The notes below the pieces were generated by a model that worked only from the letters and a program-made list of their open reading frames with translations, was not told the origin of the DNA and did no database searches. Shown piece by piece: positions 35,635 to 41,827 of a DNA stretch of 64,000 nt (within the stretch, counting starts at the first letter, position 1; each line of letters begins with the position of its first letter). The DNA comes from a virus (lineage: Duplodnaviria; Caudoviricetes): IMG/VR virus record IMGVR_UViG_3300028805_000037, positions 128,001 through 192,000 of that record. One strand, given 5' to 3'. A program made the position numbers and the translations under genes.

Positions 35635-36246
35635 ATGCTTTTTCGTGGACGTAGATTAATAAAAACTACATTTGTAAGTATATTACAACAATTATTTACA
35701 AATGATCCTAAATTTCCATGGAATAAAAATGTATTACAAACAAAAATCTTTCTCGATGAAAGTTTTATGAGAAGTGATCGTAAATTCCCCTATATAGTAG
35801 TAACTGATGTAACTAATGACAATTTTTTTAAAACAAGCTTTGATAGAAATTATCAAACAGAAGTATATGATGATGAAGGAAATCTTAAAGGTACTCGTTA
35901 TGGTGGTGCTATGCATCCAAGTTTTAGATTAGAATTTGGTGCACTTAATATTTATGATCTTGAGATTATTATTGATAAAGTTGAATCATTTTTCGAATTT
36001 ACTGGTGTACAAAAATTACATGATGCTGGAATAGTAATTGAAAATATAAGTGATAGTGGAATAAATACAGAAACTTATGGTAAAGATAATGTATATATAT
36101 TAAGTATAACTTTTAATATATATACTGAATGGGAAAAATATATTACAGTTGAAGAAGCCGAACTTATTAATCAAGTTGAAGTAGAAAATATAACTATATA
36201 TGATAAAGATGATAATGTTTTACATATTGATAAACCTGGTGATTAG
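35635..36246 (+). CDS. tail completion/terminator protein
   Basis: FPYIVV motif; synteny upstream of the sheath. Confidence 0.55.
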   Translation: MLFRGRRLIKTTFVSILQQLFTNDPKFPWNKNVLQTKIFLDESFMRSDRKFPYIVVTDVTNDNFFKTSFDRNYQTEVYDDEGNLKGTRYGGAMHPSFRLEFGALNIYDLEIIIDKVESFFEFTGVQKLHDAGIVIENISDSGINTETYGKDNVYILSITFNIYTEWEKYITVEEAELINQVEVENITIYDKDDNVLHIDKPGD

Positions 36247-36356
36247 CAAAGTAAAATTTAAATTTCTATGAGAATTATTTTCTCTATACATTTCAACGAT
36301 GTTGTTTTACTACCAACTATCTCGATGTACATTTATGAATGATAGACTCACCCAAA
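36243..36356 (-). ncRNA. omega-RNA 1 (scaffold overlapping the tnpB 3' end, guide from ~36262)
   Basis: GGGTGA/TCATTC, GTTG/CAAC, GAGAA/TTCTC stems; TCTAT:ATAGA pseudoknot. Confidence 0.75.
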
Positions 36357-37625
36357 CTTTTTAAATTTAAAGCTGCATTTAAATCTCTATTTATTAAAGA
36401 ACCACAATTAGGACAAGTCCATTGTCTATCTTTTAATTGTAATTCTTTATATTTATAACCACAATTATTACAAATTTTAGAAGAAGCAAAAAATCTATCA
36501 GCAAATATTAAATACTTTCCTTTTCTTTTTAATTTATATTGTAATTGCCATATAAATTGAGCATAACCAAGATCATTTACTGATTTACCAAAAATTTTAC
36601 TCATTCCTTTTAAATTTAGAGATTCTACAACTATTATGTCATTTTCATTAACTAATTTATTACTTAAATTATGTAAAAAATTAGTTCTTTCATTAGTAAT
36701 ATGATAATGAATTCTACTGATTGATTTTCTCAGTTTTCTAAATCTATTACTATTATGTTTTTTCTTACTTATTTTTTTATTTAATTGTTTTAAATATTTT
36801 TCATATTTTCTATATAATCGTATATATTCTGGAGAATTATTATTTGAATCTATAAAAAATGATTGTAAACTCATATCTAAACCTAAAATTTTAGATTCAT
36901 CATTAATTTGTACTTGTTTAATATTAATATCTTGTTCAACATTAAAAGAAATAAAATAATGTTCTGAAGTATCTTTACTTATTGTAGCATGTTTAATTTT
37001 ACCTATTATTTTTCTTTTATCTTTATAATTTATCCATCCAACTATAGGTATTTTAATTTTATGATTATCATAATTAATTTTGATATTATTATTTATAAAT
37101 GATGTAGTATAAGAACCACCATATTTTTTCTTTTTAAATTGAGGAAAACCAAAATTATTTTTTACCTTTAATGATTTATAAAAATTATTATAAGCATCTT
37201 TTAAATTAACAAAAGTCCACATAAATGATTGTGAATCAACTTCATCCATAAATTTATATTCATTTTTTATTTGTTTTATTGTTTTATACTTATATTTATA
37301 TAATGTATTTTTATCATTTTTATATTTTTGATATATTTCTTTTCTTTCAGCTAACATTAAATTATACATTAATCTATTACAACCAATAGTTTTATCTATA
37401 AGTTCTTTTTGTTTATTATTAGGATAAATTCTAAATTTATAAGCAAATTGTTCCATAATTTTTAAATTTAAATTAAGTTGAATTTAATATTTTATATCAT
37501 TTAATTAAGTGCATAATTTAAATTTAAAAAGATAGGACGAATCCATCGCTCTTAAATGTACATCGAGATAGGAAGTATTAAATTCCATCAATGAAATGTA
37601 TAGAGAAATAAAATTCTCATGGAGA
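36263..37625. mobile_element. transposase-less tnpB element with two outward-facing omega-RNA ends
   Basis: 115-nt imperfect inverted repeats 36257-36371 and 37517-37631; excision restores a late-promoter motif. Confidence 0.8.
36317..37456 (-). CDS. tnpB: IS605-family TnpB
   Basis: YKFRIYP, RuvC LGLDM / VVESL / NRDLNAA, CxxC-CxxC. Confidence 0.95.
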   Translation of the reverse strand: MEQFAYKFRIYPNNKQKELIDKTIGCNRLMYNLMLAERKEIYQKYKNDKNTLYKYKYKTIKQIKNEYKFMDEVDSQSFMWTFVNLKDAYNNFYKSLKVKNNFGFPQFKKKKYGGSYTTSFINNNIKINYDNHKIKIPIVGWINYKDKRKIIGKIKHATISKDTSEHYFISFNVEQDINIKQVQINDESKILGLDMSLQSFFIDSNNNSPEYIRLYRKYEKYLKQLNKKISKKKHNSNRFRKLRKSISRIHYHITNERTNFLHNLSNKLVNENDIIVVESLNLKGMSKIFGKSVNDLGYAQFIWQLQYKLKRKGKYLIFADRFFASSKICNNCGYKYKELQLKDRQWTCPNCGSLINRDLNAALNLKSLGESIIHKCTSR

Positions 37626-37645
37626 TTTAAAATAGATTTTTAAAT
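37532..37645 (+). ncRNA. omega-RNA 2 (stand-alone paralogue, also leader of the sheath mRNA; guide from ~37626)
   Basis: 19- and 17-nt blocks identical to omega-RNA 1, with compensatory GGAA/TTCC and TCCAT:ATGGA changes. Confidence 0.75.
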
Positions 37646-37659
37646 GTGAGGTAAAATAT

Positions 37660-39402
37660 ATGACAAGATTAGGGCCGGGAGTTTATACAGAAGATGGAGC
37701 AAATGCAAATTTAGCTTCTTCTTTATCAGGATTTAATATAACAGCAGTTATTGGTTTAGGTAAAAATTGGAAATTAATTAGTGATGTTGAAATAGTTAAA
37801 TCTGAACCTGAAACAAATGAACCTACAGCAAATGAATTACTTTATAGTAATGTAGTTGATACATTTATTGGTGATAAATTAATTCCATATACAACTTATG
37901 TTTTACCTATAACTTCTTCAAATGCTGGTTATTATAGAGTTAATTCATCAATACAAGGTGCTTTAGAAGTTGTAAGTAATGATACTGAAAATCCTACAGA
38001 TAAACAAATAAAAATTGAAAATGTTACACCTTGGCAAGAATCAGATTCAGTTGTTATTGGTGATTATGTAATTGAATGTAATGATGGTGATTATCTTGAA
38101 AGAGATGAAGATGTAACTGGAGTAAAATTTGTTATACCTACATTAAAAAATAATGATATAATTACTGATGCAAATGGAGCTGCAATAGATTTTGATGTTA
38201 TACAAAGTATAGTAAGTTTAGGAACACTTCCTGGATTAAATCAATATAATATAAATCAAGATTATATAATAGAAAAAATTTCTTCAGAAGATGAATTAAA
38301 TGGCAAAGCTCAAATAACTTGGTTATATAATAATTATCCTGCAGTTGGTAGCTCATTTTATATTACATATAAGCAATTAAAAGATGATAAAGATTATTCG
38401 CCTAAATATAAATATTCTACTGAATCTATAACTAATGATTATGGAGCTGAATATGATAATGGTGTTGTAAATTCATTATCATTAGCAGCAGATCTTGTTA
38501 TTGAAGGCCAGACTGTATTTGGTGGTGGAGTTCTTTGTTGTCAAGTAAAAGATAATACTCTTCAAGGTTGGAAAGATGCAATAGATAAACTTGATAGTAA
38601 AGTATTTAATACATATATATTAACAAATCAGCAAGGCGAATTTGGACAACAATTACAAACATATTTAAAAAGTAAAATTGAAATGTTATCAAGTATAACT
38701 TATAAATCTGAAAAGACAGCATTTTATATTCCATTTGATAAAGATATGGAAATAGAAACAATTAATGCTTATAGAGAAGCTTTAAATTCACAAAGAATAA
38801 CATTATTTGGTAATAAAACTTGTACAGTAGAACTTGTTGATAATACAACATTAGAAACTGAATTTGTAGAATTACCTTCAATTTATGCTTGTGCAAATCT
38901 TTCTGGTATTGAAGGAAATCCTGAATATACATTTAGTGAACCTATGTTAAGAAAGCAATTATCACCAAGAATAACATTTAATGAAGAACAAAGATATAAT
39001 CCTTCTGAAATGACTTCACTTGATAATAATGGCGTTAGTATATTTGATATGGATTTATTAACAAATATTTCTTATGTATATGTTATTGGTACCACTGATA
39101 TGACTAATGTTATAACCGAAACTAGAGCTGTTAGAAGAGAAACTGATTTACTTAGACAAAATGTAAGAAGAAATCTTAATCAATACATTGGTAAAAAGAA
39201 TAAACCTATAACTGCTGCTAGTGCTACTGAAACAACAAAAGCGATGTTAAGAAATTTTGTTAATATTGATGAGATAGCTGGATTTAGAGATGTTACATCT
39301 TGGTTTGATGAACAAGATCCAAGATTATTAAAACAATCATTCTGGTATTTAAGTTATTTGGAAACCAGATGGATTCATGTAACTATTGGAGCAGAAATTT
39401 AG
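37660..39402 (+). CDS. contractile tail sheath protein
   Basis: PGVYTE N-terminus; C-terminal RRETD.LR...YIG...DPR..WIHVTI. Confidence 0.9.
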   Translation: MTRLGPGVYTEDGANANLASSLSGFNITAVIGLGKNWKLISDVEIVKSEPETNEPTANELLYSNVVDTFIGDKLIPYTTYVLPITSSNAGYYRVNSSIQGALEVVSNDTENPTDKQIKIENVTPWQESDSVVIGDYVIECNDGDYLERDEDVTGVKFVIPTLKNNDIITDANGAAIDFDVIQSIVSLGTLPGLNQYNINQDYIIEKISSEDELNGKAQITWLYNNYPAVGSSFYITYKQLKDDKDYSPKYKYSTESITNDYGAEYDNGVVNSLSLAADLVIEGQTVFGGGVLCCQVKDNTLQGWKDAIDKLDSKVFNTYILTNQQGEFGQQLQTYLKSKIEMLSSITYKSEKTAFYIPFDKDMEIETINAYREALNSQRITLFGNKTCTVELVDNTTLETEFVELPSIYACANLSGIEGNPEYTFSEPMLRKQLSPRITFNEEQRYNPSEMTSLDNNGVSIFDMDLLTNISYVYVIGTTDMTNVITETRAVRRETDLLRQNVRRNLNQYIGKKNKPITAASATETTKAMLRNFVNIDEIAGFRDVTSWFDEQDPRLLKQSFWYLSYLETRWIHVTIGAEI

Positions 39403-39690: not shown

Positions 39691-39770
39691 AAATATATAA
39701 AATAATATAAAAAAATATAAAATTATTAAAACACTTTAATTTAAATTTAAAATAAATGAAGGAATAATAA

Positions 39771-40385
39771 ATGAAATCAAAACAAGTTTTAAAATTATTA
39801 CAAGTATCAAGAGTAACACTTTCAAAATATGTAAAGACTGGCTTAATTAAAGTAACAATGAAAAAAAATAAAACTTATGATTATGATGAAGATAGTATAT
39901 ATTCTTTTTTGGGAAAAAATAAAGTTGAAGAACAAAAATTAAATATAATTTATGCTAGAACTTCAAATCCACCTAAAAAATATGCTGAAGAGCAATCACA
40001 AAGAGTATTAAATTTTTGTACTTCTAAAGGTATACAAATAGATAAAATATTTATTGATGTTAAATCTGGAATGAATTTTCAAAGAATAGAATTTTTAAAA
40101 TTAATAGATTTAATAATTAATAATAAAGTAAAATTAGTAGTTATTGAAAATAAAGATAGATTAGTAAGATTTGGTTTTGAATTATTACAAGAATTATTTA
40201 AAAAGTTTGGATGTGAAATATTAATAGTAAACAATTTGTCTGAAAAAACTTATGAGCAAGAATTAACTGAAGATTTAATTTCAATAATACATTATTTTTC
40301 TATGAAATCATATTCTAATAGAAGAAAATTAAATAAAATTAAAGAAGAATTACAAAACAATGATAACATTAAAAATCAAATATAA
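39771..40385 (+). CDS. tnpA: IS607 serine recombinase TnpA
   Basis: N-terminal HTH, YARTS, DVKSG, KDRLVRFGF, ELTEDLISII. Confidence 0.95.
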   Translation: MKSKQVLKLLQVSRVTLSKYVKTGLIKVTMKKNKTYDYDEDSIYSFLGKNKVEEQKLNIIYARTSNPPKKYAEEQSQRVLNFCTSKGIQIDKIFIDVKSGMNFQRIEFLKLIDLIINNKVKLVVIENKDRLVRFGFELLQELFKKFGCEILIVNNLSEKTYEQELTEDLISIIHYFSMKSYSNRRKLNKIKEELQNNDNIKNQI

Positions 40386-41727
40386 CACTAATTTAAATAA
40401 TATAAATATAATTAAACAATATCAAAGACAATATACTATTTGTTATAAAGTTATATATAAATATTTAAAATTAGGTTTAAAATCTAATCAAATTAAAGAA
40501 AAATTAAAAAATTATAAAAATATTAATTTAATTATAAATAATTCTTGGTTTATAAATTGTTTATTTTATGATGTTAAATGCATTTTAAAAGAAACAAATA
40601 ATGTATGTTTTAATTATAATTTACATTTAAAAAGAAATAAAAATTTAATAACAAAACAAGAATTTAAAGAAAATAAGTATTTTCAAGTTTGTTCTAATGG
40701 AGAAATAGATAAAAAATGTAATAGATTCTTTAAAATTTTAAATATTAATCAAATTTTATTTAAGCCCAATAAATATACAAAAATATTATTAAATTTGCAA
40801 AGTTTAGGTAAAAATAGGATTAAAATATTACAACAATTATTAAATTTACAAAATAAAAATAATATTTTATCTATAACTTATAAATTAAATAAAGATTATA
40901 TTTATTTAACATTTGATGAATCTAATTTATCTTTAATTAAATTAAAACCAATAAATAATAGAATATTTGCTATAGATATGAATCCTAATTATATAGGTTA
41001 TTCTATTATAGATTGGAAAGATACTGAAAATTTAAAATTTAATCTTATTAATGCTGGCATAATTTCTTTAAAATCATTAAATGATAAATATTTTAGTTTT
41101 AAAAAATTAAAATTATCATCTAATAATAAATTAAAATTGCATTTAACTAATAAAAGAAAATTTGAAATCTTTGAAGTAAGTAAACAATTAATAAAATTAG
41201 CTAAACATTATAAATGTGAATTTTTTGCTATTGAAGATTTAAATATAAAATCTAATGATAAAAATTTAGGTAAAAAATTTAATAGTTTATGTAATAATTT
41301 ATGGAATAGAAATAAATTACAACAAAATATACAAAAAAGATGTAATTTAATAGGAATAAAATTTAAAAAAATAATTGCAAATTATAGTTCTATATTAGGT
41401 AATTCATTATATAGAAATTTAAAATTACCAGATATGATTTTATCTTCTATAGAAATTAGTAGAAGATGTCAAGAATTTAATTTACAATATATTAAAAAAA
41501 GTAAAAAAGTTACAAAAAATATTATTTTTCCAAATTTAACTGAAAAAGTAAGAAATTTATTAAATCAGACTATGGAAGTATTGGGAAATAAATTTCAATT
41601 TGAAACAATCAATAATTTTTGTTATTTTTTAAAAAAGAACTTTAAAAATAAATATAGAGTTCCTCTAGATTTAACTAGAGTCTTTAGACAAAAACATTTA
41701 AAATATCAATTAATAAATTTTATATAA
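40360..41727 (+). CDS. tnpB: divergent IS607-type TnpB (no zinc finger)
   Basis: RuvC AIDMNP / AIEDL / NYSS..G / PDM. Confidence 0.8.
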   Translation: MITLKIKYNTNLNNINIIKQYQRQYTICYKVIYKYLKLGLKSNQIKEKLKNYKNINLIINNSWFINCLFYDVKCILKETNNVCFNYNLHLKRNKNLITKQEFKENKYFQVCSNGEIDKKCNRFFKILNINQILFKPNKYTKILLNLQSLGKNRIKILQQLLNLQNKNNILSITYKLNKDYIYLTFDESNLSLIKLKPINNRIFAIDMNPNYIGYSIIDWKDTENLKFNLINAGIISLKSLNDKYFSFKKLKLSSNNKLKLHLTNKRKFEIFEVSKQLIKLAKHYKCEFFAIEDLNIKSNDKNLGKKFNSLCNNLWNRNKLQQNIQKRCNLIGIKFKKIIANYSSILGNSLYRNLKLPDMILSSIEISRRCQEFNLQYIKKSKKVTKNIIFPNLTEKVRNLLNQTMEVLGNKFQFETINNFCYFLKKNFKNKYRVPLDLTRVFRQKHLKYQLINFI

Positions 41728-41827
41728 ATTTATATTGTTTTAAATTGTTTTTGTTATTTAAATCAATTTAAAAATTGGTATAATAATTTAAATTTAAAAT
41801 AGATTTGTATAAGAGAGGTAAAAATAT

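Follow-up and report, generated by a model that had tools for sequence, protein, structure and literature searches.

What kind of element has settled in the promoter of the putative tail sheath gene of this phage: a single tnpB element with two RNA-encoding right ends, or two modules, placed one against the other in the same site? The stretch analyzed (the window, 64,000 nucleotides) covers bases 128001-192000 of a 300,445-bp virus record (IMG/VR IMGVR_UViG_3300028805_000037; 26% G+C, estimated completeness about 98%). The host genome is that of a virulent-type jumbo phage of the ruminant gut, and the public runs containing the stretch are sheep, bovine and other gut metagenomes, with no RNA run among those listed. 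Positions refer to the window, unless marked as genome positions. The insert (36263-37625, 1,363 bp) carries a tnpB gene, flanked by two genes for structured RNAs of one family: omega RNA 1, which overlaps the tnpB 3' end, and omega cassette 2, on the opposite side. An earlier note, made from the letters of this DNA, had described the whole as one new kind of element. The comparisons reported here make it fairly probable, instead, that the locus consists of a conventional tnpB-only element and an independent omega-RNA mini-cassette, nested head to head and homing by means of TnpB. This reading starts from direct observations: the anatomy of the locus, the RNA family with its covariation, the insertion polymorphisms at two sites and the recurrence of the promoter motif.

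The insert lies between a 203-aa gene (35635-36246, plus strand), whose stop codon is 16 nt away, and the putative tail sheath gene (37660-39402, plus strand, 580 aa). It interrupts the core of TTTAAATTTAAA, a recurrent promoter-like motif, as the earlier note had recognized, and deletion of 36263-37625 does restore the motif. The empty junction predicted in this way is found, with TTTAAATTTAAA unsplit, in three relatives. The closest is the Logan contig L014, where the gene order is the same, the sheath protein is 98% identical and the flanking DNA is 95-97% identical on both sides; here 45 nt, in place of 1,413, separate the two genes, and the spacer contains the unsplit motif followed by AATAGATTTT. 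The left flank of the insert aligns to L014 up to its TTTAAATTTAAA, the right flank from it. The other two are the more distant L015 (sheath identity 76%), in which the 203-aa gene is also in the same order, and L007 (44%). Since ATTT repeats at both junctions, the point of cutting can be placed only to within -1 to +3 nt. Of the claim that no target was duplicated, the exclusion of a longer duplication stands, because the empty allele keeps both TTTAAA halves, while zero is not distinguishable from a duplication of up to 4 nt. A 7-nt ATTTAAA duplication for the whole insert was considered and rejected, both TTTAAA copies being kept in the empty allele.

The occupied arrangement recurs in a second sheep-gut study and, in a version about 3% diverged, in a bovine-gut run. 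In four DNA sequencing runs, for which contigs were searched, no contig joins across the element; the joints listed there have sides of 20-24 nt and resemble AT-rich noise.

The genome contains 27 occurrences of the interrupted motif, TTTAAATTTAAA, where about 2 would be expected; the motif is nearly always followed by A and is located 15-40 nt upstream of a ribosome binding site (RBS) and ATG, on the plus strand. The genes behind it in the window encode a baseplate wedge subunit, a virion structural protein, an IS607 transposase and another transposase-like protein, and it is reasonable to regard it as the promoter motif of structural (late) genes. Three copies are held by the insert itself. 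One precedes tnpB (37459-37475, minus strand), 2-3 nt from the ATG and with no RBS; the tnpB mRNA is likely leaderless. One, identified by repeat and motif searches, stands ahead of omega cassette 2 (37514-37530, plus strand); the motif before tnpB is a perfect 17-nt inverted copy of this one. The third (36360-36371) is contained within A-L-N-L-K codons of tnpB, ahead of omega RNA 1. No terminator-like site is found between the cassette 2 promoter and the sheath ATG: this motif should now also drive the sheath gene, with transcription starting in the cassette.

The tnpB gene (36317-37456, minus strand) is intact and encodes 379 aa. The product matches the Pfam families HTH_OrfB_IS605, OrfB_IS605 and Cas12f1-like_TNB (E values from 1e-16 to 2e-20); among NCBIfam models, guided_TnpB scores 279 bits against a cut-off of 100, and IS200_TnpB outscores IS607_TnpB. 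The catalytic residues of ISDra2 TnpB are D191, E278 and D361. In the phage protein D194, E278 and D358 align with them (8bf8/8exa): this RuvC triad, already noticed as retained, and the four cysteines of a CxxC...CxxC zinc finger are invariant across 17 homologues. No transposase is found within 36263-37625, again as noted earlier. The only trace of a Y1 transposase in the whole genome is a 39-residue N-terminal remnant of IS200 type (genome 251522-251638, contig L080), with an in-frame TGA, below the cut-off and 87 kb away; it adjoins, upstream, a second tnpB paralogue (genome 251635-252726). At the left end of the tnpB element no GC-rich subterminal hairpin is recognized, only an AT-rich palindrome. 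The features of TnpA-mobilized IS200/IS605 elements, a Y1 TnpA and subterminal hairpins at both ends, are thus not combined here; supply of TnpA by the cellular host is conceivable. A blastn search of a phage collection returned distant tnpB similarity and no relative of the locus, and scans of IMG/VR with single-protein patterns, for the sheath and for TnpB, gave no match.

Omega RNA 1 (36263-36371, minus strand) has the canonical position; a covariance model (CM) scores 123 bits at 36249-36370, and the scaffold occupies about 36263-36352. Omega cassette 2 (37523-37625, plus strand, about 103 nt) stands alone and scores 115.6 bits at 37518-37639. The two are about 80% identical (blastn: 80% over 116 nt) and the arms of the inverted repeat lie at 36306-36371/37517-37582, 36279-36301/37586-37608 and 36248-36281/37607-37640. 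Repeat search and blastn therefore confirm the two inverted paralogues of about 115 nt, described as flanking tnpB, and the exact shared blocks and the differences listed between them are all present in the sequence.

That these differences are largely compensatory, as had been proposed, is borne out by an alignment of 9 family members; the relatives come from eight fetched contigs, with TnpB of 66-88% identity, all of which carry the RNA at the tnpB 3' end. The alignment supports four helices and a pseudoknot between the helix 1 loop and the 3' tail: 95.8% of the cells pair, versus 32-44% when partners are slid, and both-side changes are seen in 16 out of 29 pairs, a figure reached by none of 500 shuffles. 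G-U pairs are frequent in helices 1 and 2, as expected if the RNA is transcribed from the proposed strand. In the three copies that this genome has (the third is described below), 85 of 87 cells pair; 10 pairs vary and 8 of them are paired in all three, stem 1 of cassette 2 containing one A-C mismatch. Energy-based folding finds the same helices, mildly better than shuffles (z from -1.4 to -2.4): it is covariation that carries the case for the predicted RNA structure, thermodynamic folding alone being weak. The family is best identified as the omega RNA of this TnpB clade, a conserved structured RNA overlapping the tnpB 3' end, with both flanking RNAs as members; the use of guides is presumed. 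No Rfam family matches either RNA, apart from sub-threshold, snoRNA-like noise, and an exact 17-mer of the RNA core has no occurrence in IMG/VR.

The bovine-gut variant contains five substitutions within cassette 2, all preserving or improving the structure: a compensatory double change in helix 1, one G-U turned into G-C, a C-A mismatch turned into U-A and one loop reversion to the family consensus. The contigs are of low depth and are taken as supporting evidence, not as proof; these substitutions argue that cassette 2 may be a working RNA rather than a relic.

The covariance model, built on the 9-member alignment, was run on the whole genome and on the relatives. The genome has exactly three matches: the two at tnpB and one solo cassette (genome 199096-199216, L004:3096-3216, minus strand, 116.4 bits), 34 kb from tnpB and 7 kb past the window end, where genes for a PIF1-like helicase and a 586-aa protein leave 1.2 kb of non-coding DNA between them. 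The three copies are mutually about 80% identical. Neither cassette 2 nor the solo copy contains an open reading frame (ORF): both are complete scaffolds with no protein gene and with a compatible TnpB elsewhere in the genome, as expected of stand-alone omega RNAs. The solo copy likewise starts with TTTAAATTTAAA, and the homology among the three begins exactly at this motif, with no shared left-end sequence; the cassettes do not, therefore, keep both left end and right end, as PATEs do. Downstream of the solo cassette a hairpin, AAGGTATTGG..ACCTT, is present, which recurs after promoter motifs at genome 257688 and 262428 and may represent another small RNA or leader family.

The solo site also has a natural empty allele. 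In L081, whose neighboring helicase is 95% identical at the amino acid level, the motif is unsplit, while in this genome its two TTTAAA halves are 102 nt further apart; the covariance model finds no match in L081 or L082. The absence of just these 102 nt indicates that the RNA cassette is an insertion module in its own right, using the same kind of site. Occupied and empty alleles among close relatives, as expected of a homing element, are thus available both at the sheath site (L014) and at the solo site (L081).

In the relatives, the RNA accompanies tnpB in a single copy. Each tnpB has one match, always at its 3' end, in 67 related loci, in two further metagenome loci and in two complete related viral genomes; a second, upstream RNA is found by the covariance model in none of the 67 loci and in neither of the two genomes. 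The closest relatives are L005 and L075 (TnpB identity 88%), with L076 as a further right end: an L005-like element is present at three different sites, each time with a single RNA. In L005 and L075 the region upstream of tnpB is homologous to that of this phage, the homology taking in an outward-facing motif some 65 nt away from the ATG, which there directly forms the promoter of the neighboring phage gene, with no second RNA. Helix 4 is common to the three local copies, as opposed to L005, while helix 3 of cassette 2 is that of L005: this pattern of sharing indicates that the RNA copies are old paralogues within this lineage.

On these grounds the description as one new kind of element with two right ends is not supported: a single RNA is the norm of the family, the cassette inserts alone, and the left regions of L005 and L075 are those of ordinary elements. 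The 1,363 bp can be divided into an ordinary element of about 1,260 bp and a cassette of about 103 bp, with a recreated TTTAAATTTAAA at the inner joint. Module A (about 36263-37522) would be a conventional tnpB-only element of IS200/IS605 type, with the omega RNA at its 3' end; module B (about 37523-37625) would be an independent mini-cassette of the same kind as the solo copy. Both would have been placed in the TTTAAA|TTTAAA core of a structural-gene promoter, each bringing promoter sequence with it, so that the locus stays functional.

Some observations on junctions stand beside this comparison. In L075 the L005-like tnpB element is flanked by a 13/14 direct repeat (TTTATTTTAA[A/C]TAT), abutting both conserved ends (L075:1540-1575 and 2790-2830), while direct repeats in other family members measure 4-11 nt; because the lengths vary, they do not represent a classical target duplication. 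The junctions of L005, L075 and L076, with repeats of 4-14 nt, follow no consistent rule for a fixed target-site duplication, or for a target-adjacent motif (TAM) 5' of the conserved left end. In the distant phages L006, L009, L010 and L012 tnpB is directly preceded by a different motif (TTTCATTTAWATTTATAT), and the left flank terminates in TTTAAA or TATAAA, followed at once by TGAAAT/TGAT, with which the guide begins as well; the family appears to follow whatever promoter-like motif a phage has as its own. A 10-nt indel, placed precisely where the omega-RNA guide starts, distinguishes the otherwise identical contigs L007 (4190-4225) and L008. The empty alleles L014 and L081 have 1-nt indels, and the bovine variant has deletions at its junctions; taken together, these differences suggest an indel hot spot at the first bases beside the elements. 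The intergenic region at genome 223151-223251 is the empty form of the site occupied by tnpB in L005 and L010.

The guide of a TnpB is the DNA just past the right end, and its target is the same DNA, beside a TAM, in the unoccupied site (10.1101/2023.03.14.532601; PMC10691335). By position relative to the scaffold end, and by analogy with characterized TnpBs, the presumed guide 1, starting TTTAAATTTTAC, is at 36243-36262 (minus strand). The presumed guide 2, starting TTTAAAATAGAT, is at 37626-37645 (plus strand) and would also be part of the 5' leader of the sheath mRNA. Both RNAs read outward into the flanks, that is, into the two halves of the split site, as the earlier note had it.

From this arrangement a mode of action may be proposed, extending to expression, the choice of TAM, the formation of a ribonucleoprotein, cleavage and homing. 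A transcript starting at the cassette motif would run through omega RNA 2 into the sheath gene; the identical inverted motif would drive the probably leaderless tnpB, and the motif in the A-L-N-L-K codons would drive omega RNA 1. TnpB, with either RNA, would recognize the unsplit promoter of a co-infecting relative, by a TAM within TTTAAA and the adjacent flank: owing to the palindromic core, both guides would have TTTAAA directly 5' of their targets, each on its own strand. The carrier would be protected, as in the occupied genome each guide is preceded by a scaffold end instead. A break in the relative, when repaired from the occupied genome, would lead to copying of the whole 1.36 kb, and the outcome would be homing, in which markers flanking the site in the rival are co-converted or excluded; the solo cassette would do likewise at its own site, using TnpB in trans. 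The insert probably spreads between related phages like a homing gene, and its own motifs would explain its residence in a needed promoter without cost. For homing, whether the locus is nested or twin-ended is immaterial, because the block is copied as one piece.

Several points weigh against this reading. The first concern the match between guides and natural targets. Counted from the presumed TAM, guide 2 agrees with the natural empty alleles over 7-9 nt, guide 1 over 6-10 nt, and the solo guide agrees with L081 over 7 nt; in the empty alleles the matches end at a 1-nt indel just after TTTAAAA, or at other divergence, and the sampled relatives are probably not cleavable with these guides. 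The bovine variant is devoid of the flanking TTTAAA half-sites, so that the guides are not strictly conserved. Read only from the junctions, the TAM may be TTTAAA/TTAAA; should the right end extend through GAAATT, it would be AAATT. Other points concern the modules. No allele with module A only, or module B only, was found at the sheath site, and the nesting is thus reconstructed by comparison, not seen as an intermediate. The inner boundary between A and B can be fixed only to about 10 nt, and about 25-45 nt between the divergent promoters have no homologue in L005, L075 or the solo copy. Finally, the whole genome contains no intact Y1 transposase, and the 102-nt cassette, though evidently mobile, has no left end.

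As to the right end itself, GAAATT is common to six right ends, which may extend two letters further. An IS605 model, where TAM and transposon-encoded motif (TEM) would both be AAATT, with no repeat removal, was rejected: it needs three ancestral TTTAAA half-sites, and the relatives have two. In this genome, TTTAAA followed by a 14-nt perfect match to guide 2 (17/20) is found at 41787-41812, in the promoter of the structural gene that follows (177 aa; virion structural protein according to PHROG): it is possibly a self near-target or a regulatory site, either tolerated or with some role. A similar 14-nt match is found for guide 1 at genome 1803.

A broader alternative, to be regarded as tentative and rather unlikely, is that dispersed, self-promoted guide-RNA genes colonize late-promoter cores. 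The 102-nt cassettes would spread through TnpB breaks and motif homologies, all guides would begin with the promoter half-site, and the paired guides at the sheath promoter would cut both arms of this essential promoter in a rival. If true, TnpB with its multiple guides would act between phages as a natural weapon or gene drive, and the arrangement would mark a step toward a Cas12-like layout, with one nuclease and many guides.

The composite alternative, by which a single element, bounded on both sides by omega-RNA "right ends", entered the dyad center as a whole and evolved to double-cut the empty allele, appears unlikely. In every allele seen, the 1,363 bp are either there or missing as a single block, the two internal promoters form the perfect 17-nt inverted repeat, and for recombinational homing the block acts as a unit whatever its origin. 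Yet the second RNA is found in no other family member sampled and the cassette inserted alone at the solo site, as judged from L081. The two RNAs are just 80% identical and resemble different relatives, stem 3 of the upstream one being that of L005, and the left regions of L005 and L075 show the normal architecture.

Cassette 2, and perhaps the solo copy, might be kept mainly as a cis-acting leader, or as a TnpB-dependent regulator of late transcripts, rather than as a guide to cut rivals: binding or processing of the sheath mRNA leader by TnpB would be one possibility, weak docking at late promoters, which all offer TTTAAA and a 7-nt seed, another. Such a role is suggested by the lack of a terminator, which necessarily makes omega RNA 2 the 5' leader of the sheath transcript, by the 14-nt TAM-proximal match of guide 2 at the next structural-gene promoter (41787-41812) and by the poor match of the guides to natural empty alleles; the known processing by TnpB of its own transcript (PMC10278001) points in the same direction. 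It is distinctly improbable, since the RuvC triad is intact, unlike that of known TnpB-derived repressors, and presence/absence polymorphism at two sites is what homing predicts. Lastly, solo right-end relics are common around IS200/IS605 elements, but that the extra copies are inert leftovers of earlier tnpB insertions, with no present function, is very hard to reconcile with 85 of 87 cells pairing despite about 20% divergence, with a population variant changing in structure-preserving ways only, with a perfect promoter motif kept in each copy and with CM scores (115-123 bits) equal to those of tnpB-attached copies.

With regard to the neighborhood, the 580-aa gene can be called a sheath gene only putatively. 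Its own match to Phage_sheath_1C is weak, although 7 of 15 homologues of the protein match this family (best E value 6e-6), and the protein has no match in a PDB sequence search or in PHROG. Directly downstream, an element of IS607 type (39740-41727) is found, preceded by a TTTAAATTTAAA motif at 39740. Its serine transposase (39771-40385; NCBIfam transpos_IS607 equivalog, 162 bits) is about 2 kb from the TnpB insert and is overlapped by a 455-aa ORF (40360-41727), for which the TnpB-related match is weak only. Elsewhere, the homologue of the 613-aa MJ0330_N-like protein of L005 (genome 220925-223150) falls into two matching parts, 220925-221179 and 221567-223150, separated by about 390 nt, for which an intron, a further insertion or splitting of the gene may account. 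The empty site at genome 223151-223251, mentioned above, adjoins it.

Cas12 descends from TnpB, and it is an open question how a single, built-in guide gave way to many guides acting in trans. The locus, read as two nested modules, is a compact natural case, in which one nuclease gene is accompanied by three complete guide-RNA genes under structural selection, two of them free of a protein gene, and in which occupied and empty alleles are available at two sites. One motif serves as phage promoter, insertion site and presumed TAM region, and the locus shows how a mobile element can occupy an essential promoter without killing the gene. The use of guides in trans, the choice of TAM, promoter rescue and homing or exclusion can all be tested here with short synthetic substrates.

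Among known systems, the closest are tnpB-only (IS1341-type) IS200/IS605 elements of ISDra2 type (8bf8/8exa/8h1j). Domain architecture and catalytic triad are the same, at a TnpB identity of roughly 30-35%, estimated by eye from the alignment; the omega RNA overlaps the tnpB 3' end, is closed by a pseudoknot and reads the flanking sequence as guide; presence or absence of the element is seen at one fixed site, and the guide corresponds to that site as it was, still unoccupied, in the immediate ancestor. Unlike those elements, the one described here resides in a virulent-type jumbo phage, with no intact Y1 TnpA and no GC-rich left-end hairpins recognized; it occupies and supplies a phage promoter motif, and the omega RNA promoter is within coding sequence.

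Stand-alone omega RNAs, mobile and acting in trans, are documented (Altae-Tran 2021, as summarized in PMC10691335), and PATE-like elements encode omega RNAs (Meers et al., preprint 10.1101/2023.03.14.532601). With these the cassettes share a complete scaffold without protein, a compatible TnpB in the same genome, evident mobility and the provision of an extra guide. In contrast to PATEs, which keep both ends, the cassette is of about 102 nt, has no left-end homologue and starts exactly at a promoter half-site that also occurs within tnpB codons; it enters promoter cores with promoter function kept, and one copy lies head to head against the tnpB element, nested with it.

That transposons may home between co-infecting phages is an idea found in PMC13565253. 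As with the free-standing homing endonucleases of T-even phages (PMC13565253), a nuclease gene is wedged between conserved genes and is present or absent among close relatives. Action on co-infecting relatives, with co-conversion of flanks, would be expected as in T-even intronless homing and marker exclusion, and is proposed here from sequence; specificity, however, would come from RNA guides, not from the protein, and self-protection from the splitting of TAM and target. TldR, too, is a TnpB-family protein with guide RNAs aimed at promoter regions, but its RuvC is inactivated, whereas the triad is intact here, and the phage protein is not classified as a TldR. Type V CRISPR-Cas12 and TranC systems offer a further parallel, more than one guide gene per nuclease being found with Cas12; unlike there, no repeat-spacer array and no split tracr/crRNA are present, each guide gene being a complete, dispersed scaffold. 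What is particular to this locus is the very small cassette without a left end, beginning at a promoter half-site, the insertion in promoter cores, for which the inserts bring a replacement promoter of their own, the nesting of one cassette head to head against the nuclease element and the existence of natural empty alleles for both sites.

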